64,000 nucleotides of DNA from an uncultured Acetatifactor sp. (GTDB lineage: Bacteria > Bacillota > Clostridia > Lachnospirales > Lachnospiraceae). A model generated the notes under the pieces. It made no database searches, was not told the origin of the DNA, and saw only the letters and a list, made by a program, of their open reading frames with translations. The translations under genes and the position numbers were made by a program. Each line of letters opens with the position of its first letter. Positions within the stretch are counted from its first letter, which is position 1. The DNA lies in assembly GCA_947625675.1 (NCBI GenBank), contig CANQPH010000009.1, forward strand, positions 3,896 to 67,895, read 5' to 3'. Below, one piece after another: positions 453 to 64,000 of the stretch.

Positions 453-482
453 ATGTTGTGATTAAGTGAAGGAAGAATATGG

Positions 483-1325: not shown

Positions 1326-1392
1326 GTCTGAATACCTCCCTTTGATGATGGATAAGATGCCGCCGGGCACCTTTCTATCATGCATCTTTCTA

Positions 1393-1420
1393 TAATATAT
1401 GACCTGGGAGGGGATCCGTG
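1393..1420 (-). promoter_or_regulatory. Putative sigma-K-type promoter for the amidase
   Basis: Minus strand reads CAC-N16-CATATATTA, matching the B. subtilis sigK consensus. Confidence 0.4.
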
Positions 1421-1467
1421 ACGGTTTCCCGGAGGCCGCCATAAAAGCCGTTTTTAGACATAAAAAA

Positions 1468-1541
1468 TGGAAGCAAAGGGGCTCGAACCCTTGACCTCCC
1501 GCTAGTCAGGCGAGCGCTCATCCCAGCTGAGCTATGCTTCC
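1468..1541 (-). tRNA. tRNA-Val(GAC)
   Basis: Cloverleaf GGAAGCA/TGCTTCC acceptor, anticodon loop CT-GAC-TA, T-loop TTCGAGC. CCA not encoded. Confidence 0.95.
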
Positions 1542-1676
1542 AATGAAGTACATTATACTACGTCCCCCCGGAAAAAGCAAGAAAAAAATGAGAATAACTT
1601 GAAAAGCCCTCTCGCAAATGATATATTAGGAATGAAAGATTACTTTTCGGAGTTCGTTCCACGACAAGGGGTCATA

Positions 1677-3898: not shown

Positions 3899-3984
3899 AT
3901 TTACGTAAATTTCCCCTCGCCCGGTCATAAATTTCACATGGTTCAGATATAGTGATGGTGGGAAAAGATGGGCGAGGTGCGCAT

Positions 3985-5004: not shown

Positions 5005-5137
5005 GGGTTGTCCTCCTCTCCGCTATCTTTCTCGGCAACCTTTTCCGTTTCCGGCGAAGTCATGCGGGGGTTTCTAGGAGTTGTTCTCCTCCCCGCCATC
5101 TTCTTCGGCAACCTTTTCCTTCTCCGGCAGAGTCATG
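4977..5137. repeat. 73-bp tandem repeat, about 2.2 copies, spanning the ends of two convergent genes
   Basis: TCCGGCGAAGTCATGCGGGG at 4977 and 5050, and TCCGGCAGAGTCATG at 5123. Confidence 0.9.
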
Positions 5138-6363
5138 AGCACCTTGGAGATCCGGTTCTGATCGATGCCCTGCACCTTCAAGGTCACGCCGTCGTCCAGG
5201 GTGACTTCCTCCCCGTCCTCCGGCAGCCGGTCCAATTTTTCGATGATGATGCCGCCGATGGAGTCATAGTCCTCGGAATCGAATTCCGTGCCCAGGGCGT
5301 CATTGATGTCGTCCAGCTTCATGCTGCCTTCCACCAGGTAGGTGCGGTCTCCCAGCTCCTGGATCAGCTTTTCTTCGTCCGCATCGTACTCGTCCCGGAT
5401 TTCTCCCACGATTTCTTCCAGCAGATCTTCCAGGGTGATCATGCCCTCGCAGGCCCCGTATTCATTGAGCACGAAGGTGAGATAGGCGGATTTCCGGCGC
5501 ATTTCCAGCATCAGATCGGCGGTTTTCTTGAACTCGTATGTATAATGGGCTTCCCTGAGGATATCCTTCACGGCGAAATGGGCCTCGTCGGCGACCATGA
5601 CGAAATCCTTGATGTTGATGAAGCCCACCATGTTGTCATTGTCCTCCTGATACACCGGCAGCCGGGTATACATGGATTTGCGGAAAACTTCCTGCACCTG
5701 TTCGTAGGTGGAGTCCATGCTGATGGTGGTCATGTTGACCCGGGGAATCATGATGTCCTTGGCCTTGGAGTCGGAGAAATCGAAGACGTTGATGATCATT
5801 TCCTTTTCTTCCGATTCGATGGCGCCGTCCTCGTGTCCCACGTCCATATAAGTGCGCAGATCCGTCTCCGTCAGGGTGGAGCGCTTGGTGGGGTCGATAT
5901 GCATCAGGCGCATGATTCCGCCGGAAAGCTTATCCACGATGAAAATAACGGGGGTCAGCAGGTGCATGAGCCACAGGATGACGTTGCAGTATGCCAGGGA
6001 AAGCTTTTCGTTGGAGACCATGGCCCAGTTCTTGGGGACGATTTCTCCGAACAGGAGGATGATCATGGTCAGGATTCCGGTGGCGATGCCCACGACCAGG
6101 TGGATCCGTATGGCCAGGGTGGTGGCCAGGGCGGAAGCCGACAGATTGACGATATTGTTGCCGATCAGGATTGTGCTCAGCATTTTGCTGTAGTCTTCCA
6201 GAATTTTATTGACCGTGGCGGCTCTCTTGTTGCCCTCTTCCTCCAGAGTGCGCATCCGCACCCGGTTCACCGTGGTGAGGGCGGTTTCGGCGGAAGAGAA
6301 AAAGCCGGACAGGACGACGAGAATCAGAATCGCAATAAATTGTATGGCACCAGGGGTATCCAA
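5074..6363 (-). CDS. HlyC/CorC family CNNM-type transporter (DUF21 + CBS pair + CorC_HlyC)
   Basis: FFSSAETALT, LFGEIVPK, YTRLPVY, GMITLEDLLEEIVGEIRDEYD, YDSIGG. Confidence 0.92.
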   Translation of the reverse strand: MDTPGAIQFIAILILVVLSGFFSSAETALTTVNRVRMRTLEEEGNKRAATVNKILEDYSKMLSTILIGNNIVNLSASALATTLAIRIHLVVGIATGILTMIILLFGEIVPKNWAMVSNEKLSLAYCNVILWLMHLLTPVIFIVDKLSGGIMRLMHIDPTKRSTLTETDLRTYMDVGHEDGAIESEEKEMIINVFDFSDSKAKDIMIPRVNMTTISMDSTYEQVQEVFRKSMYTRLPVYQEDNDNMVGFINIKDFVMVADEAHFAVKDILREAHYTYEFKKTADLMLEMRRKSAYLTFVLNEYGACEGMITLEDLLEEIVGEIRDEYDADEEKLIQELGDRTYLVEGSMKLDDINDALGTEFDSEDYDSIGGIIIEKLDRLPEDGEEVTLDDGVTLKVQGIDQNRISKVLMTLPEKEKVAEEDGGEENNS

Positions 6364-6496
6364 AAAAGTTCACTCCTTCATAAGATAATGTAAAATACAA
6401 ACAGTTTGAAAATTAATATACCTTAGGCCGAAGGGATTGTCAAGTTTTCTTCCCCCGCAACATATATTTTTATAAATTTTTAATAGAAGGAAAAGC

Positions 6497-6901
6497 ATGG
6501 AAAAGAAATTGCAGCCCAGAAAAACCAAGGAAGAGGAGGGAATCGGACTGTTTTCCCTTCTAAAATACCTGTTGCTTTCTTATCTTTGCACGGGGCTTGC
6601 GCTGATGGCGCTGGCTTTTGTCCTGTATCGGTTCCGGCTGTCCGGCCAGGTCGTTTCCATCGTCATCATCGTCATCTACGTGGCCGCCACGTTCCTGGCC
6701 GGCTTCCTGGCAGGGAGGAAGGCGGGCAGCCGCAGGTTCCTATGGGGACTTCTGGAGGGAAGCGCCTATTTCCTGGTCCTGGCGCTCTTGTCCCTCGCCA
6801 TCTATCATTCCGTGGGAGATCTGACCCACTCCTTCCTTACGACCCTTCTTTTATGCGCCTGCGGAGGGATGAGCGGGGGGATGTTCGGCGGGTCCAGATA
6901 A
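6497..6901 (+). CDS. TIGR04086-type four-TM membrane protein
   Basis: Four hydrophobic helices, GFLAG...FLWGLLEG pattern, and its usual position just upstream of scfA. Confidence 0.75.
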   Translation: MEKKLQPRKTKEEEGIGLFSLLKYLLLSYLCTGLALMALAFVLYRFRLSGQVVSIVIIVIYVAATFLAGFLAGRKAGSRRFLWGLLEGSAYFLVLALLSLAIYHSVGDLTHSFLTTLLLCACGGMSGGMFGGSR

Positions 6902-7012
6902 GAGTTTGAAAATAAAGTTCTTTTTTTTACAAAAAACTCTTTCCCAATCGGACATTTTATGCTATACTACAAAAAGTTCACCGGATTTCTATTCATGAAG
7001 GAGGTTATTACG

Positions 7013-7156
7013 ATGAAGCACATCAAGACTTTGACAACCAGAGATCTGAAGGAGTCCATGAAGAAAGGCGGATGCGGCGAATGCCAGACCTCTTGCCAAT
7101 CTGCATGTAAGACTTCCTGCACAGTCGGCAATCAGAGCTGTGAGAAAGTGAAATAA
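7013..7156 (+). CDS. scfA: SCIFF six-cysteine ranthipeptide precursor
   Basis: MKHIKTL...GGCGECQTSCQSACKTSCTVGNQSCE; AAGGAGG RBS. Confidence 0.97.
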   Translation: MKHIKTLTTRDLKESMKKGGCGECQTSCQSACKTSCTVGNQSCEKVK

Positions 7157-7162
7157 GACGAC

Positions 7163-7194
7163 AGTAAGCAGCGATCTTTCAGTCGCTGCTTATT
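7163..7194 (+). terminator. Stem-loop between scfA and scfB
   Basis: AGTAAGCAGCGAT / GTCGCTGCTTATT. Confidence 0.6.
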
Positions 7195-7270
7195 CAATGT
7201 CAGTGTCTCATGGGCGGCCCGGAAGGCTGCCTGGCGGCACCATCCGGGAATCACTAGAAAGGAAAGTTTC

Positions 7271-8656
7271 GTGATACATCAGTATATCAACAATGGTTAT
7301 CATATCGTGATGGATGTGAACAGCGGTTCCGTGCACGTGGTGGATGAGCTCACTTACCGCCTCATTCCTCTGGCCGAGGAGATGGTGGAAGGGGGAGAGA
7401 AGGACGGCGGGAAGATCCTTGCGGGACTTCTGGAAGCAGGGCTTCCTTATTCGGAAGAAGAAGTGCGGGAGGCCGGGGAGGAGATCCTGGAGCTTTGGCG
7501 GGCCGGACAGCTGTTTGCGCCGGATATCTATGAAAACTATATTTTTGATTTCAAAAAGCGGCAGACGGTGGTGAAGGCCCTGTGTCTCCACGTCGCCCAT
7601 GACTGCAACCTGGCCTGCCGGTATTGCTTCGCAGGAGAAGGGGAATACCACGGCAGGAGGGCCCTGATGAGCCTGGAAGTGGGGAAGAAGGCCCTGGATT
7701 TCCTGGTGGCCAATTCCGGGAACAGGGTGAACCTGGAGGTGGATTTTTTCGGCGGGGAACCTCTGATGAACTGGCAGGTGGTTAAGGACCTGGTGGCCTA
7801 CGGCAGGAGCCTGGAAAAGCCGCATAACAAGCGTTTTCGCTTCACCCTGACCACCAACGGAGTGCTCCTGGACGATGAGGTGATGGAATTCGTCAACCGG
7901 GAGATGAGCAACCTGGTCCTGAGCATCGACGGGCGGAAAGAGATCAATGACAAAATGCGCCCCTTCCGGGGAGGGCAGGGCAGCTACGACGTCATCGTCC
8001 CCAAGTTCCGGAAAGCGGCGGAGAGCCGGGGGCAGATGAACTATTACGTCCGAGGCACCTACACCCATTACAACCTGGACTTTGCGGAGGACGTGCTGCA
8101 TCTGGCGGACCTGGGCTTTGAACAGATTTCCGTGGAGCCGGTGGTGGCGGAGCCCTCGGATCCTTATGCCATACAGGAGGAGGATCTCCCCAAGCTTCTG
8201 GCGGAGTATGACTGGCTGGCGGCGGAGATGCTGAAGCGCAGGAAGGAAGGCAGGCCTTTCAACTTCTTCCACTTTATGATCGACCTGGAAGGGGGCCCCT
8301 GCGTGGCCAAGCGTCTGTCCGGCTGCGGCTCCGGCACGGAGTACCTGGCGGTGACGCCCTGGGGGGACTTGTATCCCTGCCATCAGTTCGTGGGAAATGA
8401 AGATTTCCTCATGGGCAACGTGGAGGAAGGGATCCTGCGCACGGACATCCGGGACGAATTCAAGGGCTGCAACGTGTACGCCAAGGAAAAGTGCAGGAAA
8501 TGCTTTGCGAAGTTCTACTGCAGCGGCGGCTGCGCCGCCAATTCCTATCATTTCCACGGCAGCATTAACGACGCCTATGACGTGGGATGCGAGCTGCAGC
8601 GCAAGCGCATCGAGTGCGCCATCATGCTGAAGGCGGCCCGGGCGGAGGAAGAATGA
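7271..8656 (+). CDS. scfB: SCIFF radical SAM/SPASM thioether maturase
   Basis: CNLACRYC motif, DFFGGEP, Cys-rich SPASM tail (CVAKRLSGCGSG, CRKCFAKFYCSGGCAAN), adjacent to scfA. Confidence 0.95.
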   Translation: MIHQYINNGYHIVMDVNSGSVHVVDELTYRLIPLAEEMVEGGEKDGGKILAGLLEAGLPYSEEEVREAGEEILELWRAGQLFAPDIYENYIFDFKKRQTVVKALCLHVAHDCNLACRYCFAGEGEYHGRRALMSLEVGKKALDFLVANSGNRVNLEVDFFGGEPLMNWQVVKDLVAYGRSLEKPHNKRFRFTLTTNGVLLDDEVMEFVNREMSNLVLSIDGRKEINDKMRPFRGGQGSYDVIVPKFRKAAESRGQMNYYVRGTYTHYNLDFAEDVLHLADLGFEQISVEPVVAEPSDPYAIQEEDLPKLLAEYDWLAAEMLKRRKEGRPFNFFHFMIDLEGGPCVAKRLSGCGSGTEYLAVTPWGDLYPCHQFVGNEDFLMGNVEEGILRTDIRDEFKGCNVYAKEKCRKCFAKFYCSGGCAANSYHFHGSINDAYDVGCELQRKRIECAIMLKAARAEEE

Positions 8657-8800
8657 GGCCCGGCGAGGGAGAAATCGAAGCCCCCCTGCGGGCGGACTGC
8701 GGAAGCGCAGGGCCCGGTGAGGGAAGGACGGAAGTCCCTGCGGGCGGCGGAAACGTCAGGCCCGATAAGAGAGAAAGAGTAAGGCCGCCGGATGCGGGAA
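8657..8800. repeat. Degenerate 48-54-bp tandem repeat in the scfB-secDF spacer
   Basis: GGCCCGGYGAGGGA...CCCTGCGGGCGG at 8657 and 8711; a weaker third copy at 8759. Confidence 0.6.
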
Positions 8801-8833
8801 GGATGTGTCCGGGCGGCGGAATGGAGAACAGAA

Positions 8834-11083
8834 ATGAAAAAGAGTAGAGCAATTTTGATCCTGCTTTTGCTTCTGGCTGTGCTGGCGGGAGTCACCTATG
8901 TGGATCTGGCCGGTACGGACGGCACGGGAGCGGGAAGCGCCTCGGACATCAAGCTGGGGCTGGATCTGGCCGGAGGCGTGAGCATCACCTACAAGGTGGT
9001 GGGAGACGGTACGCCCAGCAGCACGGACATGAGCGACACCATTTCCAAGCTGCAGCAGCGTGTTTACAACTATAGTACGGAGGCCATCGTGTACCAGGAA
9101 GGTCTGGACCGGATCAACATTGAGATCCCCGGCGTGCAGGACGCCAATGCCATCCTGCAGGAGCTGGGCAGACCCGGAACCCTGTATTTCATTGCGGAAA
9201 CGGACGATGAAGGAAATGATAATTATAGTCTCCAGGCGGATGCTTCCGGCAATTACTATTATGCCCTGAACCAGTCCATCGAGGAACTGCAGGCGGAGGG
9301 CTCCATTCCTTTAAGCGGCACGGACGTGGCCAATGCCCGGGCCGTGAGCTATACCAACGATTATGGCAACAGCGAATTCGCCGTGGAACTGACCATGACG
9401 GATGAGGGCCGGGACAAGTTCGCAGAGGCCACCAGAAGAGCCTACAACAACAACCAGGAATCCCTGGGGATCTACTATGACGGAAGCTTCGTCAGCGTGG
9501 CCAGGGTACAGGCGGTGCTGACGGACGGCACGGCCCTGATCTCCCCCATGGAATCCTTTGAACGGGCGGAAAGCCTGGCTTCCACTATCCGTATCGGCGG
9601 ACTGAAGGTGGAGCTGGAAGAGCTGCATTCCAAGGTGGTGGGCGCCCAGCTGGGCGTGGAGGCCATCGACACCAGCCTGAAGGCCGGCGTCATCGGTTTC
9701 GTCCTGGTGGCGGTATTTATGATCGCCGTATATTTCGCCATGGGCCTGGCTTCCGTGCTGGCCCTGAGCCTGTACGTGGCCCTGGTGGTGCTGCTTTTGA
9801 ACGGCTTTGACATGACTCTGACCCTGTCTGGCATCGCCGGCATCATTCTTTCCATCGGTATGGCGGTGGACGCCAACGTGATTATTTTTGCCCGTATCCG
9901 GGAGGAACTGGCCGCCGGAACCAGCGTCCGCACCGCTTTGAAGCTGGGCTATGACAAGGCCCTGTCCGCCATTATAGACGGCAACATTACCACCCTGATC
10001 GCAGCAGGCGTGCTTCTGATCCTGGCCCCGGGTTCCATCAAGGGCTTCGCTCAGACCCTGGCTCTGGGCATCGTGCTGTCCATGTTCACCGCCCTGGTGG
10101 TGACCAGGTGGGTGATGAACGCTTTTTACGCCCTGGGGCTGCGGGACGCCAAATGGTACGGCAAGGGCAAGACTTATAAGACCATCAACTTCCTGGGCAA
10201 ACAGAAGATCTTCTTCTGCGCATCCCTGGCGGTGATCGTGGCCGGGTTCATCGTGATGGGCGTGAACAAGGCGACCATCGGCGATTTCTTCAACCTGAGC
10301 CTGGAGTTCAAGGGCGGAACCGCCACGACCGTTACTTTCCAGGAGCACAGGACCCTGGAGGAGATCAATGCGGAGGTCGTGCCTCTGGTGGAAGACGTGA
10401 CCGGAGGGCCCGTGCAGATCCAGACGGTGCAGGATTCCAACGAGGTGATCTTCAAGAGCAACGCTTTGAACGTGGAGCAAAGAGAGGCGCTGGACGACAT
10501 GTTCCAGGAGAATTTCGGGGTGAGCGGACAAATGATCACTTCGGAGACCATCAGCTCCACCATCAGCGATGAGATGACCCGGGACACCATCCTGGCCGTG
10601 GTCGCGGCCATCGTGTGCATGCTGATCTACATCCGCATCCGGTTCAGTGACATCCGGTTCGGCATCAGCAGTGTGGCCGCCCTGACCCATGACGTGCTGG
10701 TGGTGCTGGCGTTCTATGCGGCTGTCAGGATCTCCGTGGGCAACACCTTCATCGCCTGCCTGCTGACCATCGTAGGTTACTCCATCAACGCCACCATCGT
10801 GATCTTCGACCGTGTGCGGGAAAACATGAGAAGCATGACCAAGAAGGATACCCTGGAGGAAGTGGTGAACAAGAGCGTTACCCAGACCCTTTCCAGAAGC
10901 ATCTTCACTTCCCTGACCACCTTCATCATGGTGGCGGTGCTTTACATCCTGGGCGTGACCAGCATCCGGGATTTCGCCCTGCCTTTGATGGTGGGCATCG
11001 TGTGCGGCGCTTATTCTTCCGTCTGCCTGACCGGCGCCATGTGGCTGTGGCTCCGTAAGAAGCTCCCTCAGAAGGCGGAGTAA
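8834..11083 (+). CDS. secDF: Fused protein translocase subunit SecDF
   Basis: IKLGLDLAGG, GMAVDANVIIFARIREE, SLEFKGGT, GYSINATIVIFDRVRE. Confidence 0.93.
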   Translation: MKKSRAILILLLLLAVLAGVTYVDLAGTDGTGAGSASDIKLGLDLAGGVSITYKVVGDGTPSSTDMSDTISKLQQRVYNYSTEAIVYQEGLDRINIEIPGVQDANAILQELGRPGTLYFIAETDDEGNDNYSLQADASGNYYYALNQSIEELQAEGSIPLSGTDVANARAVSYTNDYGNSEFAVELTMTDEGRDKFAEATRRAYNNNQESLGIYYDGSFVSVARVQAVLTDGTALISPMESFERAESLASTIRIGGLKVELEELHSKVVGAQLGVEAIDTSLKAGVIGFVLVAVFMIAVYFAMGLASVLALSLYVALVVLLLNGFDMTLTLSGIAGIILSIGMAVDANVIIFARIREELAAGTSVRTALKLGYDKALSAIIDGNITTLIAAGVLLILAPGSIKGFAQTLALGIVLSMFTALVVTRWVMNAFYALGLRDAKWYGKGKTYKTINFLGKQKIFFCASLAVIVAGFIVMGVNKATIGDFFNLSLEFKGGTATTVTFQEHRTLEEINAEVVPLVEDVTGGPVQIQTVQDSNEVIFKSNALNVEQREALDDMFQENFGVSGQMITSETISSTISDEMTRDTILAVVAAIVCMLIYIRIRFSDIRFGISSVAALTHDVLVVLAFYAAVRISVGNTFIACLLTIVGYSINATIVIFDRVRENMRSMTKKDTLEEVVNKSVTQTLSRSIFTSLTTFIMVAVLYILGVTSIRDFALPLMVGIVCGAYSSVCLTGAMWLWLRKKLPQKAE

Positions 11084-55647: not shown

Positions 55648-55695
55648 AAGGGATCGTTGCTTGGTTGGCAATATGCGGCCAGGCAATGATCCTTT
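55648..55695 (+). terminator. 20-bp hairpin downstream of gdhA
   Basis: All five non-Watson-Crick positions are G.U pairs on the + strand, followed by TTTTACATTT. Confidence 0.6.
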
Positions 55696-55807
55696 TACAT
55701 TTATAGAAATCGTGCTTTTTCATTGATATTTCCTCTTGTAAGGGAGAAAGATTGCAATTATACTTTACATATAAACTGTTAATCCGGCAACGAAAAAGGA
55801 GGAACCG

Positions 55808-56686
55808 ATGAACAAGCTGGGAATTTTCATGAATTTTTGGGAACAAAACTGGAATGCGGATTACTACAAATATATCAAAAAAGCTTCCGATCTGGGCTTT
55901 GACGTTCTGGAATTCCAGGCGCAGCCGCTGTTGAACATTCCAGACGAGGAACTGAGGAATATCAAAAAGGCGGCGGATGACTGCGGTATTGAACTCACCT
56001 ATAGCCTCGGGCTGGATAAACGATATGATATTTCTTCTGACGATCCCTATATTCGGGGAGCGGGGGTGGTTTATCTGACGGACATTCTGAAAAAAGTGGC
56101 TGTACAGGAAGGAAAGATCATTTCGGGCGTGAGTTACGCCGGTTGGGGCGTCCCGGAAGGTGAGATCAATAAAAAGAGGAGGACCGCCAACAGCATCGGC
56201 TCCATGAAACAGCTGGTAAAAGTGGCCAATTCTCTGGGAATCCAATATGCGGTGGAAGTGGTGAACCGCTTTGAAGGAGTGGTCCTGAACACCGCCAAGG
56301 AGGCCGTGGCCTATGTGGAAGAGGTGGACAGCCCCAATATTGGAGTCCTTCTGGACACCTATCATATGAATATCGAGGAGCCGTCGATCCGTGACGCCAT
56401 CCATACCGCCGGTAAATATCTGATCGGTTTCCACGTGGGAGAAAACAACCGCACCGCACCGGGGAGAGGACATCTGAACTGGGACGAGATCTTTGATGCG
56501 CTGAAGGACGTGAACTATAGAGGAAGGATCGTGGCGGAGCTGTTCGTGAAGGCCGGAGGCGAAGTGGGACGGGACATTTACGTGTGGAAGGATCTGATCG
56601 AAGAGGAAGGCGAGGAAGTGCTGGATGCGGAAGCCAGGTATATGCTGGCCTTTGAGAGAAAAATGCTGGAAGCCAGGGGCATGTGA
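55808..56686 (+). CDS. Ketose 3-epimerase (D-psicose/D-tagatose/L-ribulose 3-epimerase family)
   Basis: FWEQNWNADY N-terminus, EVVNRFE, DTYHMNIEE, HVGENNR, PGRG..W, and VAELF carrying the second catalytic Glu. Confidence 0.88.
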   Translation: MNKLGIFMNFWEQNWNADYYKYIKKASDLGFDVLEFQAQPLLNIPDEELRNIKKAADDCGIELTYSLGLDKRYDISSDDPYIRGAGVVYLTDILKKVAVQEGKIISGVSYAGWGVPEGEINKKRRTANSIGSMKQLVKVANSLGIQYAVEVVNRFEGVVLNTAKEAVAYVEEVDSPNIGVLLDTYHMNIEEPSIRDAIHTAGKYLIGFHVGENNRTAPGRGHLNWDEIFDALKDVNYRGRIVAELFVKAGGEVGRDIYVWKDLIEEEGEEVLDAEARYMLAFERKMLEARGM

Positions 56687-56829
56687 AATACGAATTGCTG
56701 AAAGATTCCCACTATATTGAGGGAAAGACTTTGGATGCAACAATGGTGCAGCCTCACAAGGCGGTTGATTTCCGCCTTGTGAGGCTTTTTGTAGAGAACA
56801 GGTCTCTTCATGGTTAGCTGTTTCATGCA

Positions 56830-58440
56830 CTATAGATTGTAGTTTCGTCGGTATTCGGACGGAGTGGTTCCATATTGCTTTTTAAATAACCTTGAAAAAT
56901 AGTTGGCATTGTCATAACCGGTAAGAGAAGATATTTCCAAAATGTTTTTATTGGAACTTTTCAAAAGTCTGGCCGCTTCGTACATTTTAATATTGGTAAT
57001 GTATTCTGATAAACGAGTCCCCGTTTCTGCCTTAAATATAGCGCTTAAATAGTTGGGGCTGATACACAGTTTCTGTGCGATCATTTGAACATTGACAGGT
57101 TCATGGAGTTCTTCCAGTATGATCTTTTGCACGTTTGAAATTAATTTCCCCGTCTTCTTTTTTAGTATATGACGAGAAGTAACCAGCAGATTCCGCAGAT
57201 TTTTCTTGATATTGGATTCAAGCAATGGAAGACTTTCTGCGCTTAGAATATCGTTCAAAAGCCTGGAATAAATATCAGGCCGTTCTGAAATAACAGATAG
57301 CTTGTTGGATAAATCCATCAAGAAAATGATGAGGTCAACCTTCAAGGCTATAACGTTTTCCTTTGTAGCCAGGCCGAGTTGAATGATATTGTTAAATTCT
57401 TCCCCCAACAATTTGTCTATCTCAGTAAAATTATTTTGATACAGACATTGCGTGATTTTTTCTTTTACCTTGGGCGATAATTGAAATCGCTGGAAATCTT
57501 TTTCATGCAGATCGCAGAAGAAGCAAACAAAACTATTTCCAAAAAAATTACCCTGATTTAGAGCATCACACGCTTGTCTGTAACTGTTTCCGATATCTGT
57601 GATGGCGTCACAAGCCAGACCGACTCCTGCACTGATCTTCACATTATATTCTTTGAAAGCCCTTTTTTCTATGACTTCCAAAGCTTTTTCCAGTTCATAT
57701 CGGAACAGGCCTTCCGGTTCTTTCATCAATAATAAGCATGAAAGCATTCCCGCATCGCGCACGTAAGACCGCATGGGGGCTATTTTATGGATCTCATATT
57801 GGACGATGGATTGCACTGATAAAGTTTTTTTCCATATTTCATCTTTTTTCGCATTATGGCCAGAGGGCGGATTAAAAGAAATAACAAAAGCAAGGTAGTA
57901 TTGATTCGTGTCCGAAGCGAGTCCCAGGAAATGCATGGTGTTGTCAATATCCTGGGGGAAACAATGATTCTCTAATAGGTTATTGAAAAGAAGGTCTTGT
58001 AATTTGGACAAATTCTGACGTTCTTCTTCTTTTGTCTGTGCTTCTTTGATATGTTTCTTTTCTATCTGTCTGCTGAGAGACTGAGCTGCCATCCCTTCCG
58101 GAGTGGGAAATATCTTTCCCAATTTTTGGGGAGTTATGGGAGATTCCAATATGGCAACGGATTTTGTAAGAAAAGTTTTGAGTTTTATCGCATGCTCCGC
58201 ATGCGTGATTATGGTCAATAATCTGACAGACTGGCATATGGCAATCAGATGAAGCCAACCATTGGGAACGTTTTCCAAAAGATCCTCATTGACAATTACG
58301 ATATCATTTTTGCCAGGACTTTCGATTTCAAAAAAATGAATGTTTTCCGAAATTTCCAGCGTCATATGCGGATAATGGCGGTTGAAGTATTGACTGATTA
58401 TCACCAAGTTATCAGGGTTATTGTCTAAGATCTTTATCAT
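56830..58440 (-). CDS. YesN-like AraC-family regulator with a degenerate receiver domain
   Basis: C-terminal SPNYLS..FK, GYDNANYFSRLFKKQYGTTPSEYR; central CdaR/GGDEF-like region (ISAGVG); N-terminal REC-like region lacks canonical residues. Confidence 0.85.
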   Translation of the reverse strand: MIKILDNNPDNLVIISQYFNRHYPHMTLEISENIHFFEIESPGKNDIVIVNEDLLENVPNGWLHLIAICQSVRLLTIITHAEHAIKLKTFLTKSVAILESPITPQKLGKIFPTPEGMAAQSLSRQIEKKHIKEAQTKEEERQNLSKLQDLLFNNLLENHCFPQDIDNTMHFLGLASDTNQYYLAFVISFNPPSGHNAKKDEIWKKTLSVQSIVQYEIHKIAPMRSYVRDAGMLSCLLLMKEPEGLFRYELEKALEVIEKRAFKEYNVKISAGVGLACDAITDIGNSYRQACDALNQGNFFGNSFVCFFCDLHEKDFQRFQLSPKVKEKITQCLYQNNFTEIDKLLGEEFNNIIQLGLATKENVIALKVDLIIFLMDLSNKLSVISERPDIYSRLLNDILSAESLPLLESNIKKNLRNLLVTSRHILKKKTGKLISNVQKIILEELHEPVNVQMIAQKLCISPNYLSAIFKAETGTRLSEYITNIKMYEAARLLKSSNKNILEISSLTGYDNANYFSRLFKKQYGTTPSEYRRNYNL

Positions 58441-58862
58441 TTTACTTCCTCCCTTTTGAATGAGCAAAACAGTTCTCTTGTATCATGGGGATTTGCTCAT
58501 GCCCTCAAAGTTAATCGTGTAACAATATAATTATACCAGAAAACGGATGAAATGTCTTGTTTTTCACTAAAAATTATGCTTTTTGTGGTTCTTAATGATT
58601 ATTGTCCGACAACATGGAGACTATTTAATAGAAATAGTGTTGTTTTGTTGATATTTATTCTTGTTATGTGAATGGGATATACATCATAATATAGTTAAAG
58701 AATTGCAAATCGGATATCCGTAGAATTATTGAAATATTTTGAAAGGTGGTGGATGAATTGAAAATCGGTTAAACGAAATCGTGTATTGGTTGTGAGTTGT
58801 CGGTAAAAACTAATTTGCGCATGGTTACTGCTTGCGCCCCCAAAGAAAAAGGAAGGATGAAA

Positions 58863-60587
58863 ATGATGAAGAGGTTAAAGAAATGGACGGCGTTGTATCT
58901 TGTTATGTGTATGCTTTTGGTGCTTTGTGCTGGATGCGGTTCGGATGCTGATGAAAATGACGGCTCACTGAATGGCAGTGTGGGGCAGGAGAATGTGAAT
59001 GGAAGTACAGGGTCCGACACTGCGAAACCTGATTCTGCTGACGGCCCGTTGGTTCCCTATGAGGATACCCTTACGGTAACATTGGTAAAAAGTGATCCGG
59101 AGGCCGTTACCTATTTGGAGGGAGAAGGACCGGAACATAATTTCATAACTGATTTTTACAAAGATAAGCTTAATATTGAATATAAAATTCTTTGGAATTC
59201 AACGGATTATACAACAAAGTTAAATCTGGATATTGCCAGCAATGAACTCCCGGATATGTTCATGGTGGATGCGTCACAGTTGAATACATTAATTGAAAAC
59301 GGACAAATTGAGGATTTGACAGGTTACTTTGATGATTATACGTCTGATATTCTGAAAAAACAATTAGAGTATGACGATGGACTTTTGCTGCAAGGTTGTA
59401 CGGTGGATGGTTCTATCTATGGAATTCCTCGTCCGTTGGGTCTGTTGGATTGTACTACTTTTATGTGGATACGTACTGATTGGATGGAACAGCTTGGTTT
59501 AAGCGTTCCTACCACATGGCAGGAATTTTGGGATTATGTCAAGGCGCTGAAGGAAAGCGGATTATGTGCTTTTGGCAGCTCCGGATTGAATTTCTCCAGC
59601 GAACAGGGAGGATATGATGTCGGAATAAACAATGATGCCTTTAATGCGATTGCTCAGATGTTTGGTGCATATCTCGGCTTTTTTGTTGAGGATGAGGCTA
59701 CAGGAGAGTTGGTTTATTCGCCCGTTACGGAAAACATGAGAAATGCCCTTTTGGCAATGCAGGACATGTATAAGGCTGGACTCATTGACGCCGACTGGAC
59801 TTCTAAAGGACAGACTCAAGCGGAGTTAATCGCTTCGGGGGCTTATGGTATCACTTTTGGAAACTGGGCAATGCCATATTATTTGGTAGGAAGCATGTCA
59901 AATGATTCAAATTCCAAATGGGAATGCTATCCGTTACCTTCTTACGACAGTACTGAGAAAAGTCATCCGAAAGCGGCCGTGCCCTGCGGAGGATATTTCG
60001 TGGTCAGAAAGGGGTTCGAGCATCCGGAAAGTCTGTTTAAAACGGTAAATCTGTGGTTGGAATTGAACTGTGCTGGCGGACAGTATGTGGACTGGTGGGT
60101 AGATAAGATCAGCGGTGATTACAGTACGCAAAGCTTGGTTGGAAACTATTATCCATTTACGATGGAAGGTATCACAACTGCTTCAGATATTGCGAAAGGT
60201 CTTAACGCTGCTTACGCTTCGGATAATCCGGATGAAGAAATACAGAAATATCCCATTGCCACGTTTACTTATGGAAATATAAAAGATTGGGATGGGGAAT
60301 CGCCCACTATGGGATTTATCAATTATATGGCATATGTGCGCTGCGCCGGTGAGGTTTATCCCGCTTATGAGGAAAGAGGTCTTCAATATAATCTTTTCCA
60401 GGGGATTCTTTCAGAAGAGGCCCAATTTAATAATAGTATTCTTGGCACTACTTTGACGGAAACCTTTGTTAATATCATTATGGATGTGGAACCTATTGAA
60501 ACCTTCGATTCTTTTGTGGAACAGTGGTACGAACAGGGAGGGGAAGAGATCACGAAAGAAGTGAACGAATGGTATTCCAGTCATTGA
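58863..60587 (+). CDS. Carbohydrate ABC transporter solute-binding lipoprotein (family 1, LplA-like)
   Basis: Lipobox LCAG-C, LNLDIASNELPDMF, DGSIYGIP, FDSFVEQWYEQGGEEI. Confidence 0.88.
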   Translation: MMKRLKKWTALYLVMCMLLVLCAGCGSDADENDGSLNGSVGQENVNGSTGSDTAKPDSADGPLVPYEDTLTVTLVKSDPEAVTYLEGEGPEHNFITDFYKDKLNIEYKILWNSTDYTTKLNLDIASNELPDMFMVDASQLNTLIENGQIEDLTGYFDDYTSDILKKQLEYDDGLLLQGCTVDGSIYGIPRPLGLLDCTTFMWIRTDWMEQLGLSVPTTWQEFWDYVKALKESGLCAFGSSGLNFSSEQGGYDVGINNDAFNAIAQMFGAYLGFFVEDEATGELVYSPVTENMRNALLAMQDMYKAGLIDADWTSKGQTQAELIASGAYGITFGNWAMPYYLVGSMSNDSNSKWECYPLPSYDSTEKSHPKAAVPCGGYFVVRKGFEHPESLFKTVNLWLELNCAGGQYVDWWVDKISGDYSTQSLVGNYYPFTMEGITTASDIAKGLNAAYASDNPDEEIQKYPIATFTYGNIKDWDGESPTMGFINYMAYVRCAGEVYPAYEERGLQYNLFQGILSEEAQFNNSILGTTLTETFVNIIMDVEPIETFDSFVEQWYEQGGEEITKEVNEWYSSH

Positions 60588-60636
60588 ACGGCTGTAGAAA
60601 CCTGCCGGAAAATGATCAAGTTTAATAGCTGATTAA

Positions 60637-60683
60637 TTGGAAGAAGCGGACGGTTGTTCGTAATGTCTGTCCGCTTCTTCTAA
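60637..60683 (+). terminator. Stem-loop between the SBP and permease genes
   Basis: TTGGAAGAAGCGGACGG / CTGTCCGCTTCTTCTAA. Confidence 0.65.
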
Positions 60684-60721
60684 ATTTGTTAATCATCAAT
60701 ATTTAACGGGAGGATGGGATT

Positions 60722-61624
60722 ATGTCGGTATTATCTAAGATGAAAAAAGGGAAACAGCTTTATTTGATTATTCTTCCTGCCTGTGCAGCAACATTTGTGT
60801 TCAACTATATTCCGTTGTATGGAGTGGTATTGGCGTTTCAAAAGTATAATCCGACGAAAAACATGTTTCAGCAGGACTGGGTGGGGCTGCGGTATTTTAA
60901 ACAGCTGTTTGGAAGCGATGATTTTGTGCGGATAATATCCAATACTTTGACGATTGCATCTATAAAGATTGTTTCGTTATTGATTACCGCTCTTTTGTTG
61001 GCGCTTTTGATTACGGAAATAAGAAGCAGGAAAGTGAAAACGGCAGTACAATCATTGCTGATATTTCCCCATTTCTTATCATGGGTTGTTTTGGGGAGCG
61101 TGGTACGTTCGCTTCTGGATCAAAATGGTTTTGTGAACCAATTTCTGATGTTTTTGGGGATGCGGGAACCGATATTTTTCATGCAGGATGGTTTTTGGTT
61201 TCGTGTTGTGTTGGTCGTTTCTGAATTGTGGAAGGAAGCCGGATTCTCCGGGATGATATATATGGCGGCGATAAGCGGCGTGGATTCCACATTATATGAG
61301 GCGGCCAAGATTGATGGTGCGAACCGTCTCCAGTTGGTTTGGCATATTACTCTTAAGTGTATTATGCCATTTGTGGTTTTAAATGTCATACTGAATATGC
61401 CAAATGTGTTAAATGCCGGTTTTGATCAAGTATTTATTCTTTATAATTACGTGGTCTTGCATTCGGCGGATATTATTGACACTTATGTGTATCGCGTAGG
61501 TCTTGCAGGCGGACAGTATGCTTACGGTACAGCAGTTGGACTCTTTAAATCGGTAGTATCCAGTATTTTAATCGGCAGTTCCTATTTTATTGCGGATAAG
61601 AAACTTGGGTTTAAGGTGTTTTAA
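60722..61624 (+). CDS. Carbohydrate ABC permease (LplB/YteP-like)
   Basis: YIPLYG, WVGLRYF, PHFLSWV, EAA loop LYEAAKIDGANRLQ. Confidence 0.92.
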   Translation: MSVLSKMKKGKQLYLIILPACAATFVFNYIPLYGVVLAFQKYNPTKNMFQQDWVGLRYFKQLFGSDDFVRIISNTLTIASIKIVSLLITALLLALLITEIRSRKVKTAVQSLLIFPHFLSWVVLGSVVRSLLDQNGFVNQFLMFLGMREPIFFMQDGFWFRVVLVVSELWKEAGFSGMIYMAAISGVDSTLYEAAKIDGANRLQLVWHITLKCIMPFVVLNVILNMPNVLNAGFDQVFILYNYVVLHSADIIDTYVYRVGLAGGQYAYGTAVGLFKSVVSSILIGSSYFIADKKLGFKVF

Positions 61625-61635
61625 GGAGGAGATGC

Positions 61636-62511
61636 ATGAAAAGGAATAAATCTATTTCTTATTGGGTCTTTCAAATTGTAAATACTTCTTTTTTGGTCTT
61701 GTTGGCAATAACCTGTGTCCTCCCTTTTTTGCACATAGTGGCTGTCTCTTTTAGTGATTCCGCATCAACGAGTGCCGGAACCGTGGGTTTATTGCCGATT
61801 GGGTTTCAATGGAATGCTTATGAAAGAATTATAGACGAAAGAGACGTTTTTGTTTCTTTGTTTGTAACGGTTATCAGGATGTTTTTCGGAACTATATGGC
61901 TTATGGTTATCACCATTTCAGCGGCTTATCCGCTTTCTTTAAGCAGGCAGGAATTTTATGGTAGACGAATATTTGTGGGCTTCTTTTTCGTTTCCATGTT
62001 GTTTAGCGGAGGAATTATTCCATATTATATTTTGATCAAAGATTTGGGCTTAATGAATTCTATCTGGGCGTTGATTGTAGGAGGAACCCCTGTTTTTAAT
62101 GCGATAATTTTGATGAACTTTTTTCGAAGCATACCGCATGGTTTATACGAGGCTGCTGCGATTGATGGCGCAAGCCATTGGAAGATACTTACAAGGATTT
62201 ATTTGCCCTTATCAAAGCCATCTTTGGCAACACTTAGTTTGTTTTGCGTGGTAGCCCACTGGAATGACTGGTTTTCCGGCCTGGTATATATGAAGGATAA
62301 AACAAAGTATCCCCTTCAGACCTATATTTATAGTTTTACGCAATATTCGGCAACTTATTTTAAAAGTGAAATGTACCATGAAACCGCACCCAGGATGGCG
62401 ATTATTTCTGCGTTAAATGTGTGTGCCTTTATTCCGGTTATTGTAATTTTCCCGTTGCTTTTAAAATATGTTGCAAGACGAGGTATCATGATAGGTTCTG
62501 TAAAGGAATAA
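61636..62511 (+). CDS. Carbohydrate ABC permease (LplC-like)
   Basis: AYPLS, FSGGIIP, LYEAAAIDGAS, PLSKP, HWNDWF, PLQTY. Confidence 0.92.
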   Translation: MKRNKSISYWVFQIVNTSFLVLLAITCVLPFLHIVAVSFSDSASTSAGTVGLLPIGFQWNAYERIIDERDVFVSLFVTVIRMFFGTIWLMVITISAAYPLSLSRQEFYGRRIFVGFFFVSMLFSGGIIPYYILIKDLGLMNSIWALIVGGTPVFNAIILMNFFRSIPHGLYEAAAIDGASHWKILTRIYLPLSKPSLATLSLFCVVAHWNDWFSGLVYMKDKTKYPLQTYIYSFTQYSATYFKSEMYHETAPRMAIISALNVCAFIPVIVIFPLLLKYVARRGIMIGSVKE

Positions 62512-62540
62512 TATTAATTTGTTAGAAAGGAAAATTGCAT

Positions 62541-64000
62541 ATGATAGTTAATTTGAAAAAGGGATGGAGCGTTATTCAGGATGTTTTTGAATTGGGGGAA
62601 ATCCATGGGATTTATAAAAGAAATTTTGATCCCACATTGTTTGGCTTAGGCATTGAACCCTGGCATCCGATTGAACGGCTGGAGCATTTGCAGTTGACAT
62701 TGGCGGCAAATCCATATTATGGTTTTGGCCTTAGACAATTTAATACGTCGCCTTGGTGGTATCGAAACCAATTTGACGTGCAGGGGGGAGATGGATACGC
62801 TACCCTTACCTTTAAGGGAGTTGATTATTATGCGGATGTATGGCTCAATGAAACTTATATTGGCAGCCATGAAGGATATCAAAATCCTTTTACTTTTGAT
62901 GTGAGTGGCATTTTGAAAGAGAAGGATAACCTTTTGGTCGTAAAGGTGAGTGCGCCCTGGGAGACCGATGTCATGGCGGGGCAAGAGCATGATCGGGGTC
63001 TTTTTGTGCTGCGTAATCAGGTGAAAGGGACTTATGAACATAACGATACATTTATTCCGCGAGACGTAAATCCGATTGGAATCTGGAATGACGTAGAGGT
63101 GGAGGTGCATAGTGGTATCCGTATGATGGAGACACCGTGGATCCCGTATGAACTGGAGAATGATTATAAAAAAGCGATTATACGGCCGACCTATCAACTT
63201 TTCTGTCACTATGACAAAGAGGTGGAATATTCAATCACCGTAAGGTTGGAGGGAGATGTTCGGCAGGTCGCCAGAGTAAATGGTAAGATGTGTCTAAAAG
63301 AAGGGGAAAATGAATTAAGAGCGGAATTGGAGATTATGAATCCGCAGTTATGGACGGTTTGGGAACGAGGATATCCTTACCGCTACTCTTTTGAATTGCA
63401 GTTGGTATCAAACGGAACTGTTTTGTTGGAAGATACTCATAGTGTTGGAATTAGAAAGATTGAATTAGTTCGAAATGAGAAAGAAATGTACTTTGTACTC
63501 AATGGGGAGAAACTTTACTTGCGAGGAGCGACTTATTTCCCGGATGTTTATGTTTCTGCAAACTTTACCGACCTTTATCGGCGGGATATCAGTAATGCGA
63601 AGTTGTGCGGCCTCAATTCCTGGAGGATTCACGTTCATACGGAAAAAGAAGAGCTGTATGATTTGTGTGATAGGGAAGGAATCTTACTGATACAGGATTC
63701 TGATTTTAACTGGATACATCCTATTGAGGAAGAGTGGTCTGAAAAGGCGGTAGAGATATTTGCAGAAACAATAAAGCGTTTGAGGAATCATCCGTCCTTA
63801 TTCTGTTGGGTACTGTTGAATGAGCCAAGATTGGATATTTATTTGACAGAGCGGCCTGGGCCTCAGATGATTGGGACGCTGAACATACTGGATCCGGGGA
63901 GGGCGTTTATTCTCAGCTCCTGGTCTGAGAATGAGCCCATGAGCGGAGATAGTCATAATTACACTGGATCGTTGATTGGAGTCCATACGCATTATACAGA
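62541..64000 (+). CDS. Glycoside hydrolase family 2 (beta-mannosidase-like), 3'-truncated by the window edge
   Basis: Translated by hand with no stop to the end: WWYR, FKGVDYYADVWLN, HEGYQNPF, LNGEKLYLRG, RIHVH, LYDLCDREGI, RLRNHPSLFCW..LNEP. Absent from the ORF track because it has no stop in the window. Confidence 0.88.
   Translation, partial: MIVNLKKGWSVIQDVFELGEIHGIYKRNFDPTLFGLGIEPWHPIERLEHLQLTLAANPYYGFGLRQFNTSPWWYRNQFDVQGGDGYATLTFKGVDYYADVWLNETYIGSHEGYQNPFTFDVSGILKEKDNLLVVKVSAPWETDVMAGQEHDRGLFVLRNQVKGTYEHNDTFIPRDVNPIGIWNDVEVEVHSGIRMMETPWIPYELENDYKKAIIRPTYQLFCHYDKEVEYSITVRLEGDVRQVARVNGKMCLKEGENELRAELEIMNPQLWTVWERGYPYRYSFELQLVSNGTVLLEDTHSVGIRKIELVRNEKEMYFVLNGEKLYLRGATYFPDVYVSANFTDLYRRDISNAKLCGLNSWRIHVHTEKEELYDLCDREGILLIQDSDFNWIHPIEEEWSEKAVEIFAETIKRLRNHPSLFCWVLLNEPRLDIYLTERPGPQMIGTLNILDPGRAFILSSWSENEPMSGDSHNYTGSLIGVHTHYT

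Follow-up and report, generated by a model that had tools for sequence, protein, structure and literature searches.

What does a rare-sugar ketose 3-epimerase do in the bacterium that encodes it? These enzymes are industrially important for allulose production, and the literature that we searched assigns them no natural pathway. A gene for one such protein lies near the 3' end of the 64,000-nucleotide stretch of DNA analyzed here (the window; contig CANQPH010000009.1 of an uncultured Acetatifactor sp.). The initial annotation of this stretch had listed, downstream of gdhA, a ketose 3-epimerase, an orphan AraC-type regulator, a solute-binding lipoprotein (SBP), two permeases, and a beta-mannosidase-like GH2 enzyme, and profile searches agree with that gene set. 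We consider it likely that the ~9-kb segment from 55.6 to ~64.7 kb arrived by horizontal transfer and forms a self-contained sugar utilization regulon in which the epimerase is co-controlled with the importer and the GH2. It would comprise three transcription units: a monocistronic epimerase gene, the AraC-type regulator gene, and a divergent SBP-permease-permease-GH2 operon (Table 1).

Table 1. Features of the segment downstream of gdhA (window coordinates)
Feature	Coordinates	Strand	Description
Stem-loop 3' of gdhA, then TTTTAC	55651..55692	+	RNAfold -28.8 kcal/mol, 17-bp stem
Operator-like element 1 (ATAGAAATCGTGCTTTTTCATTGATATTTCCTCTTGT)	55703..55739	+	Overlaps -35 of epimerase promoter
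Ketose 3-epimerase (D-psicose/D-tagatose 3-epimerase family; predicted), 292 aa, monocistronic	55808..56686	+	NF051856, AP_endonuc_2
Intrinsic terminator, strong	56750..56786	+	Perfect 15-bp stem, then TTTTGT (inverted repeat I3)
AraC-type regulator	56830..58440	-	GGDEF_2-like middle domain and C-terminal HTH_18
Operator-like element 2 (ATAGAAATAGTGTTGTTTTGTTGATATTTATTCTTGT)	58628..58664	+	Overlaps -35 of transporter-GH2 operon promoter
Solute-binding lipoprotein, large, extracellular, ~576 aa	58857..60587	+	SBP_bac_1, SBP_bac_8
Stem-loop between SBP and permease 1 genes	60637..60683	+	Inverted repeat I7, 15-nt arms, 93% complementary
ABC permease 1, 300 aa	60722..61624	+	BPD_transp_1; 74% identical to L025
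ABC permease 2, 291 aa	61636..62511	+	BPD_transp_1; 62% identical to L025
GH2 glycosidase, cytoplasmic, 713 aa in full	62541..64000 (runs on to window-equivalent 64682)	+	

On profile and alignment evidence, the 292-residue protein is a member of the ketose 3-epimerase family, with the corresponding activity predicted. It scores 372 bits against NF051856 (D-psicose 3-epimerase family; cutoff, 300) and 114 bits against PF01261, and its top PDB matches are 7x7w and 3vni (E ~1e-73). Alignment to both structures keeps all of the residues E, D, H, and E and E, H, and R, carried by the motifs EVVNRFE, LDTYHMN, FHVGENNR, and AELF; following the literature on 3vni, we take the first set to serve metal binding and catalysis and the second to hold O1 to O3 of the ketose. 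The pocket motifs differ from those of 3vni (GHG to SLG, MEPF to AELF, Tyr to Phe, and Ala to Val), and residues around C4 to C6, several of which are among these changes, would set the ketohexose preference. In a phylogenetic tree, the protein falls within a monophyletic, cluster-linked clade (support, 100/99) that long branches part from 7x7w, 3vni, and two homologs of the same genus. Its nearest placeable relative is encoded at a locus in a different genome, L025 (88% identity), which also supplies the nearest homolog of the GH2 (71%).

Base composition divides the segment. GC content is ~53% before and ~40% after gdhA in the window, and in 1-kb steps it falls from 0.49 to 0.60 at 40 to 56 kb to 0.37 to 0.44 at 56.5 to 64 kb; the mean of the whole genome is 0.536. 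When GC3 was compared with that of 1,576 same-genome open reading frames (ORFs) of at least 250 aa (mean, 0.67; standard deviation, 0.10), the regulator (0.41), SBP (0.42), permeases (0.44 and 0.39), and GH2 (0.41) fell at percentiles 1.8 to 3.0 (z, -2.2 to -2.75), between host-like flanks formed by gdhA (0.74) and a downstream PD-(D/E)XK gene (0.70). The epimerase gene has a host-like GC3 of 0.63 (31st percentile of the 1,576 ORFs) and thus lies compositionally outside the AT-rich block. This contrast places a sharp switch at ~56.7 to 56.8 kb, coinciding with the strong terminator that separates the epimerase gene from the convergent regulator gene. The shift that the initial annotation had reported after gdhA, strongest from about 56700, is therefore borne out by both the 1-kb GC and the per-gene GC3 values.

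Three lines of evidence, namely atypical GC3, a lack of close homologs in relatives, and a break in synteny at gdhA, indicate that the regulator-SBP-permease-GH2 block is foreign to this genome. Within 40 relatives, no SBP homolog exceeds 30% identity (best match, 30%) and no GH2 homolog exceeds 32% (best match, 32%); for the epimerase, the only substantial homologs are the two from the same genus (39 to 42%). When the four closest same-genus genomes that carry gdhA were examined, their DNA homology to the window broke off at the gdhA stop (55571). The stem-loop beyond it, which delimits the variable segment on the left, is probably the gdhA terminator and went undetected in a simple terminator scan. 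On the right, the GH2 stops 682 bp past the window end and is followed by a multicopy PD-(D/E)XK (PDDEXK_2) gene of host-like composition; a repeat element begins 72 bp 3' of the GH2 stop, and other contigs of this genome carry copies of the PD-(D/E)XK gene with 73 to 92% nucleotide identity. The contig ends 1,532 bp past the window. The locus thus does not continue as had been anticipated, and neither the isomerase nor the kinase gene sought 3' of the GH2 is present up to the contig end. A search for mobility signatures of a genomic island found no tRNA and no flanking repeats, with only the PD-(D/E)XK gene at the right edge. The host-like flanks, gdhA on the left and the multicopy gene on the right, argue against a chimeric contig. 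The proposal of an acquired AT-rich locus therefore stands for the regulator, SBP, permeases, and GH2 and fails for the epimerase, as far as composition is concerned.

The epimerase gene differs from its five partners by 0.2 in GC3, and this gap, together with a gene order unlike that of L025, gives the locus a mosaic look, and its two parts may have arrived separately. An extension of this idea is that two independent acquisitions merely abut, the epimerase being an older resident or derived from a GC-richer donor and the AT-rich cassette being a later arrival, with no functional coupling. Saturation of synonymous sites in all genes leaves room for such a history, as does the organization of the epimerase gene as its own unit, convergent with the regulator, with no operon partner here and a strong terminator in between. 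We nevertheless judge uncoupled acquisition improbable. Where its members can be placed in context, the epimerase clade is found only inside the ABC-GH2 cluster type, the same locus (L025) is the closest placeable relative for both the epimerase and the GH2, and the two same-genus epimerase homologs from the 40 relatives fall outside the clade. Stepwise arrival, for example by part-replacement of an older cluster, would still predict coupling through the regulator.

That coupling is what the promoters suggest. The two 37-bp operator-like elements are identical at 30 of 37 positions. One overlaps the -35 box of the epimerase promoter (TTGTAA at 55736 to 55741, a 17-nt spacer, and TATACT at 55759 to 55764) and the other that of the transporter-GH2 operon promoter (TTGTTA, 18 nt, and CATAAT; 58661 to 58690). 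With three mismatches allowed, the 28-nt core of the element has exactly two sites in the 3.1-Mb genome, 5' of the epimerase and SBP genes, an arrangement that weighs directly against unrelated neighbors. The element is also found 5' of the epimerase in L025, and degenerate copies, ~20 bp ahead of TATAAT, precede operon-first genes at six related loci (L028, L030, L032, L033, L110, and L111). The AraC-type activator encoded here most likely binds at this element, and the epimerase is very probably under the same regulator as the ABC-GH2 genes, since the element is unique to the two promoters. With a shared putative operator, the epimerase would be induced together with the importer and glycosidase. 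The regulator itself is ~536 aa long from its first ATG (a 545-aa ORF reaches 58467 from a TTG) and carries a C-terminal double helix-turn-helix matching HTH_18 and HTH_AraC. Neither a receiver domain nor a transmembrane segment nor a kinase partner was found for it. Its identity is 64% with the divergently encoded regulator of L025 and 46% with the L026 counterpart; the response-regulator-type AraC protein of a Blautia locus aligns with it in the helix-turn-helix region only.

A search for the same cluster in other genomes, as the initial annotation had suggested, revealed co-inheritance. Epimerases of the same clade (75 to 90% identity) lie within homologous ABC-GH2 operons in other gut Clostridia metagenome-assembled genomes (MAGs), and all epimerases of 75% identity or more whose context can be established are within such a cluster. 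Among 13 informative loci (GH2 at least 53% identical), 9 have the epimerase within 10 kb and 9 have an isomerase. The full form of the locus adds a FucI/AraA-like isomerase adjoining the epimerase and one or two extracellular clan GH-A lipoproteins, along with LPXTG or choice-of-anchor surface proteins and sometimes a GH43. L025 holds the same minimal set as the window (regulator, epimerase, SBP, two permeases, and GH2), its epimerase gene lying between the regulator and SBP genes rather than beyond the 3' end of the regulator gene. Co-inheritance in MAGs and the shared element together indicate that the epimerase and the ABC-GH2 block are genuinely paired. By gene content, the window locus is a reduced version of a conserved gut Clostridia locus not characterized before, and the occurrence of the same minimal architecture in a different genome makes the reduced form a natural variant.

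The initial annotation had invoked an isomerization ahead of the epimerase; in relatives, a FucI/AraA-like gene does adjoin the epimerase, whereas the window locus has no isomerase. The source genome as a whole encodes no cluster-type isomerase, only paralogs of 25% identity away from the locus, and the window locus lacks the extracellular glycosidases and surface proteins of the full form; an incomplete pathway in this host may be the consequence. With these genes missing and a repeat element only 72 bp from the GH2 stop, one could read the locus as a decaying fragment of a full cluster, perhaps truncated by the PD-(D/E)XK element and supporting no growth. This seems very unlikely to us: all six ORFs of the segment are intact with catalytic residues kept, the epimerase has a dN/dS of ~0.03 relative to L025, both promoters and their operator-like elements are preserved, and L025 carries the same minimal set in another genome.

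The importer fits the CUT1 type, with a family 1 SBP lipoprotein and two BPD_transp_1 permeases. The SBP begins with a signal peptide and a lipobox (...LVLCAGC); its identity to SBPs encoded at related loci is only 44 to 48%, and its matches in the PDB are distant and uninformative on the ligand. The stem-loop behind its gene may make the SBP portion of the mRNA more stable or dampen transcription into the permease genes. No ABC ATPase gene lies within the locus; an ATPase encoded elsewhere and shared is common among Firmicutes ABC importers.

The GH2, which has no signal peptide, comprises the N, Ig, and TIM domains and a Mannosidase_ig domain by Pfam. Across 32 homologs, residues N427-E428 and E498 do not vary; the Asn-Glu acid/base and the nucleophile Glu were assigned from motif position, without superposition. 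The AF2 model (pLDDT, 89; pTM, 0.91) gave beta-mannosidases 5n6u and 2vjx as top Foldseek folds (TM, 0.82; 20 to 21% identity), with the exo-beta-glucosaminidase CsxA nearly as good. At ~20% identity to any characterized enzyme, the fold match gives no specificity. The subfamily counts 445 proteins at E < 1e-30, from Clostridia, Paenibacillus, Chloroflexota, Acidobacteriota, and Planctomycetota, and its annotated recurrent neighbors are GH51 (5 loci), a FucI-like isomerase (13 loci), the epimerase (9 loci), GH43, and GH53/GH39-like clan GH-A lipoproteins. Beta-mannosidase specificity of the window enzyme is supported neither by sequence similarity (~20% identity) nor by the gene context annotated for its subfamily (GH51, GH43, GH-A-like proteins, the isomerase, and the epimerase).

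These data bear on whether the locus is an ordinary one for beta-mannosides or the N-glycan core (Man-beta-1,4-GlcNAc or manno-oligosaccharides), with the GH2 a plain beta-mannosidase and the epimerase unrelated or accessory. The top sequence and fold matches are all beta-mannosidases (BtMan2A, 2vjx; DtMan, 5n6u; XacMan2A, 6byc; and CapGH2b, 9nfe, reported as a beta-mannosidase [PMC12770490]), and the Mannosidase_ig domain is in keeping with them. We regard this as an unlikely explanation, since the identity is low, CsxA matches nearly equally, the shared operator-like element ties the epimerase to the operon, and the annotated recurrent neighbors include none of the families typical of characterized mannan or N-glycan loci. 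A match to such a locus would, by the initial annotation, have refuted its proposal; the annotated neighbors give no such refutation.

Under the preferred reading of a sugar utilization regulon, gene content alone is observed, and each mechanistic step is stated conditionally. The SBP would capture a short oligosaccharide, which for this reduced version other members of the community probably set free, and the permeases would import it with an ATPase that is shared and encoded outside the locus. The cytoplasmic GH2, presumably a retaining enzyme of the beta-mannosidase-like branch, would cleave a beta-linked (equatorial) residue from the nonreducing end. One released sugar would be converted from aldose to ketose and then epimerized at C3, yielding a ketose that the cell can phosphorylate. 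The GH43, GH51, and GH53/GH39-like genes of relatives hint weakly at arabinose- or galactose-bearing plant oligosaccharides. More tentatively, the locus family might represent the first physiological role of the D-psicose/D-tagatose 3-epimerase family: a glycan is imported, an uncommon aldose is freed by a new GH2 subfamily, and a FucI-like isomerase and the 3-epimerase lead it to a mainstream ketose. Possible routes would be D-altrose or D-allose to D-psicose to D-fructose or D-arabinose to D-ribulose to D-xylulose. In the isomerase-less window form, the substrate could already yield a ketose, or a paralogous isomerase could be borrowed. If true, this would be an aldose-ketose-3-epimer shunt in nature that has not yet been described.

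Synteny in many gut Clostridia and the shared control element here tie an epimerase clade to an importer and a glycosidase, giving a natural context for finding what rare-sugar ketose 3-epimerases do. This tie makes the natural-substrate question tractable, as there is a single protein of each kind (SBP, GH2, epimerase, and regulator) to express. The unclassified clan GH-A lipoprotein family and the uncharacterized GH2 subfamily are candidates for new CAZy activities.

Compared with known D-psicose and D-tagatose 3-epimerases (Clostridium cellulolyticum 3vni; 7x7w; Agrobacterium 2hk0; and Pseudomonas cichorii 2qul), the window protein is alike over its full length (E ~1e-73 to 1e-67), exceeds the NCBIfam equivalog cutoff, and keeps the E/D/H/E and E/H/R residues; it differs in its long branch relative to the two structural enzymes in the tree, in its pocket motifs, and in its probable membership of a regulon alongside a transporter and a glycosidase. 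To our knowledge, work on the known enzymes has dealt almost exclusively with isolated biocatalysts. The GH2 shares with beta-mannosidases (2vjx/2je8, 5n6u, 6byc, and 9nfe) and CsxA (2vzs) a multidomain architecture, the fold (TM, 0.82), the proposed Asn-Glu acid/base and nucleophile Glu, and Mannosidase_ig. It differs from them in its ~20% identity, in being ~100 to 130 residues shorter, and in belonging to a large uncharacterized subfamily whose neighbors are not mannan enzymes. A stand-alone cassette of regulator, ketose 3-epimerase, and FucI/AraA-like isomerase occurs at L109; contig C77 of the same genome carries it together with a GH-D-like gene. Its epimerases belong to the same superclade (61 to 72% identity), and it shares epimerase-isomerase adjacency with the full-form loci; the cassette is without transporter and GH2, whereas the window has both and no isomerase.

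The mannan loci of Roseburia and Faecalibacterium (PMC6385246 and PMC8262883) and the arabinan loci of Bifidobacterium (PMC10970622) are, in the portions of those reports available to us, Gram-positive glycan loci centered on ABC transporters. To the extent covered there, the window locus resembles them in its SBP lipoprotein, two permeases, cytoplasmic glycosidase, and divergent AraC-type regulator and, as proposed here given that the locus has no such gene, in an ATPase encoded outside the locus. Families typical of the characterized loci, as those portions describe them, turned up neither at the window locus nor among the annotated recurrent neighbors at related loci. Set against the same descriptions, the window locus differs in its ketose 3-epimerase, and the full forms differ further in their FucI-like isomerase, unclassified clan GH-A lipoprotein, and surface proteins. 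The window locus is thus a Gram-positive glycan utilization locus of new composition, one that includes a ketose 3-epimerase.

The ketose 3-epimerase gene to the right of gdhA forms a real, acquired unit with the ABC importer and GH2 genes, and this unit is probably co-regulated, judging from the DNA upstream of its genes. All of the genes named in the initial annotation (epimerase, AraC-type regulator, solute-binding lipoprotein or SBP, two permeases, and GH2) were backed by Pfam and NCBIfam. The proposed pairing of the epimerase with the ABC-GH2 block also held up, on the evidence of synteny, phylogeny, and a shared cis-element. The closest GH2 homologue (71% identity) lies on a Logan contig, locus L025, where the order is regulator (reverse strand), epimerase, SBP, permease, permease, and GH2, and where the epimerase is 88% identical to that of the window. 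A consistent locus is found in MAGs of Lachnospiraceae, Oscillospiraceae, and Eubacteriales: a reverse-strand regulator is followed by GH43 and one or two clan GH-A-like lipoproteins (where present), the epimerase (75 to 87% identical to that of the window), a FucI-like isomerase, one or two SBPs, two permeases, GH2, and surface proteins. Among 13 informative loci (GH2 at least 53% identical), the epimerase and the isomerase are each present in 9.

In the epimerase tree, the genes linked to this cluster make up one clade (100/99 support), inside which the window gene groups with that of L025. A very long branch separates this clade from the structurally characterised epimerases 7x7w and 3vni, with which two same-genus homologues (39 to 42% identical) group; the window epimerase was thus not inherited vertically in this host, its host-like composition notwithstanding. 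The best matches in a set of 40 relatives, of which 24 belong to the same genus, reached 32% identity for GH2 and 30% for the SBP. For gdhA, identity across the genus is 85 to 96%; going by names in the 90%-identity cluster that contains this gdhA, the host is probably from the Lachnospiraceae. DNA homology to the four nearest genomes examined that carry gdhA ends at the gdhA stop codon, and in the closest genome an ADP-ribosylglycohydrolase gene and others occupy the site that follows. Because what follows gdhA differs between genomes of the genus, the search for an "empty site" in relatives yielded no clean insertion scar. No tRNA genes, integrase, or flanking repeats were found at the locus.

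The shift from GC-rich to AT-rich sequence, described initially as strongest from about 56,700, was reproduced accurately both in 1-kb windows (GC of 0.49 to 0.60 at 40 to 56 kb and 0.37 to 0.44 from 56.5 kb to the window end; genome mean, 0.536 over 3.1 Mb) and in GC3 per gene (see the table). Ranked against 1,576 long open reading frames of the same genome, the five AT-rich genes fall in the 2nd to 3rd GC3 percentile and the epimerase in the 31st, which places the sharp boundary in the epimerase-regulator intergenic region, where a perfect terminator is also located. A contig chimera could in principle produce such a switch but is unlikely, as the flanks are host-like on both sides. In L025 and in a related cluster, L024, epimerase GC3 is not markedly above that of neighbouring genes. 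Given the compositional mismatch between the host-like epimerase and its five strongly AT-rich partners, together with an epimerase position relative to the regulator that differs from L025, the locus looks mosaic; one possibility is that an AT-rich donor allele replaced the regulator-to-GH2 part of an older cluster. Elsewhere in the genome, where GC3 averages 0.67, several other runs with GC3 of <0.45 look like further AT-rich acquired blocks.

Coordinates of the features discussed (window positions unless a contig or locus is named)
Feature	Position	Strand	GC3
gdhA			0.74
Element 1	55703-55739		
Ketose 3-epimerase	55808-56686	+	0.63
Terminator, 15-bp stem	~56.75 kb		
AraC-type regulator	56830-58440	-	0.41
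Element 2	58628-58664		
3' 16 nt of element 2, TCTTGTTATGTGAATG	58659-58674		
Recurrence of these 16 nt, one mismatch	58898-58913		
SBP	58857-60587	+	0.42
Stem-loop, 15-bp arms	60637-60683		
First permease	60722-61624	+	0.44
Second permease	61636-62511	+	0.39
GH2	62541 to 682 bp past window end	+	0.41
PDDEXK_2, PD-(D/E)XK gene	window-equivalent 64754 to contig end (L001, 10650-11428)		0.70
AT-rich runs, own genome (examples)	C100, 0.3-9.7 kb and 16.5-26.8 kb; C49, 16.5-23.3 kb; C33, 12.2-20.0 kb		<0.45
FucI-like isomerase, full-form locus (example)	L024, 3310-4719		
GH-A lipoproteins, related loci (examples)	L024, 23-1195 and 1238-2395; L026, 3882-5054; L108, 8261-9478; L110, 6330-7445; L025, 8792-9934		
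Own-genome module: KDG-kinase-like PfkB, DUF885, LacI (-), FucI-like isomerase (473 aa), second epimerase, 708-aa protein	C77 (locus L107), 1-9231		
Stand-alone cassette: cupin-type AraC regulator (-), epimerase (71% identical), FucI-like isomerase, DUF4867	L109, 10001-12910		

Contrary to the initial expectation that the locus continues beyond the window (positions 3896 to 67895 of the 69,427-bp contig C9), it ends with GH2. The GH2 stop is separated by 72 bp from a PDDEXK_2 gene (Rpn-like nuclease/transposase), and C9 itself runs out ~1.5 kb past the window. Copies of this gene with 73 to 92% nucleotide identity are present on five other contigs of the genome (C74, C47, C19, C99, and C59), several of them at contig ends; the gene probably caused the assembly break and may have mediated rearrangement at the right edge of the island. 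The likely continuation is C59, which overlaps the last 77 bases of C9 and is host-like in composition. The suggested downstream isomerase and kinase are absent between GH2 and the contig end, and inspection of open reading frames in the first 9 kb of C59 revealed neither these nor anything else recognisably sugar-related.

The window carries a reduced form of the cluster. Missing from it, and from the rest of the genome, are the cluster-type isomerase, GH-A lipoprotein enzyme(s), surface proteins, and GH43. The genome encodes only three FucI-like paralogues, at ~25% identity. All open reading frames of the locus are intact, and a dN of 0.07 versus saturated dS shows strong purifying selection on the epimerase. 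Since L025 shares the same minimal architecture, the reduced form recurs in nature. One of the three paralogues adjoins a second epimerase on C77 (61% identical to that of the window; 381 bits on NF051856), next to a 708-aa protein with only a faint alpha-galactosidase-fold (Melibiase_2) match, so the genome has two epimerase systems with different glycosidases. An isomerase-epimerase cassette is found both on C77 and in the stand-alone locus L109. In the searched literature, the DUF4867 protein family of the latter is discussed only with sulfoquinovose degradation and not with this locus.

Evidence for co-regulation comes from a 37-bp element located 69 bp upstream of the epimerase ATG (element 1) and, with 30 of 37 positions identical, upstream of the SBP gene (element 2). 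Both copies overlap the -35-like hexamer of a promoter-like site, and a search of the genome with the 28-nt core returned just these two copies, even when 3 mismatches were allowed. In L025, the epimerase likewise has this element upstream, and degenerate copies, each with TATAAT ~20 bp further on, lie upstream of operon-first genes in related loci (L028, L032, and L033 and, twice each, L030, L110, and L111). The simplest reading is that the element is a putative operator of the AraC-type activator of the cluster, which would place the epimerase in its regulon. The recurrence of the end of element 2 within the SBP signal-peptide coding region is probably due to chance. The regulator itself combines a GGDEF_2-like domain with an AraC helix-turn-helix (HTH) and has no receiver domain, membrane segment, or kinase partner. 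Its interpretation as a degenerate YesN-type response regulator was dropped, as the BLAST alignment was confined to the HTH region.

The epimerase clears the cutoff of the D-psicose 3-epimerase equivalog model (372 versus 300 bits) and aligns over its full length with the Clostridium cellulolyticum DPEase, retaining by alignment the four metal/catalytic residues and the Glu/His/Arg residues that bind O1 to O3. The pocket motifs differ, with SLG in place of GHG and AELF in place of MEPF. The SBP, ~576 aa long, carries the lipobox of a lipoprotein; its ligand could not be deduced from solved structures, as the matches were distant and mixed (proteins binding GAG, arabino-oligosaccharide, RG-I, alginate, and FOS). 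The 134 bp that separate the SBP gene from the first permease gene contain a stem-loop, placed where it would fit a difference in stability between the SBP portion of the transcript and the rest.

GH2 (713 residues, without a signal peptide) is a member of a large, uncharacterised subfamily in which the Asn-Glu and the Glu are invariant. Its confident AF2 model (pLDDT of 89) best matches beta-mannosidases (TM of 0.82; 20 to 21% identity), with exo-beta-glucosaminidase close behind; on this predicted structure, "beta-mannosidase-like" is a description of fold and not of function. Across 80 loci of the GH2 subfamily, the recurring neighbours are permeases, SBP, and a histidine kinase with an AraC-type response regulator, along with a FucI-like isomerase in 13, an epimerase in 9, and a GH51 alpha-L-arabinofuranosidase in 5. 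No annotated recurrent neighbour is from a family that typifies characterised mannan or N-glycan loci, a match that would have spoken against the initial proposal. The GH-A lipoproteins of related loci (370 to 405 aa) have invariant clan GH-A Asn-Glu and Thr-Glu motifs. As none scores above threshold for a Pfam family and no structure resembles them closely, they may represent an unclassified glycoside hydrolase family; structural comparison gave a generic clan GH-A barrel and no clue to family, the top TM-score among the matches listed being 0.61 (GH53 galactanase). The cluster FucI-like isomerase matches only the sulfoquinovose-isomerase model, at 142 bits versus a cutoff of 700, and has no relative in the PDB by sequence.

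In the pathway we propose, the SBP would bind an oligosaccharide, and the two permeases, energized by an ATPase encoded elsewhere, would import it. The cytoplasmic, retaining GH2 would then cut off a beta-linked terminal residue, and a released sugar would be isomerised to a ketose and C3-epimerised to one that a kinase can phosphorylate. L-Fucose, D-arabinose, D-altrose, and L-galactose are substrates of FucI-type enzymes. As a lead rather than a result, only D-arabinose (to D-xylulose) or D-altrose (to D-fructose) would give a central ketose after 3-epimerisation. The neighbouring GH43, GH51, and GH53/GH39-like families are a weak hint that the substrate is a plant oligosaccharide containing arabinose or galactose.

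Full-text searches of the literature returned no description of an epimerase-importer-GH2 cluster. Taken singly, the proteins all fall into known superfamilies, and in layout the locus is a typical ABC-centred glycan locus of Gram-positive bacteria. The novelty lies in how these parts are combined: such a locus here includes a ketose 3-epimerase clade, joined in full forms by a FucI-like isomerase, as well as an uncharacterised GH2 subfamily and a GH-A lipoprotein that is unclassified.
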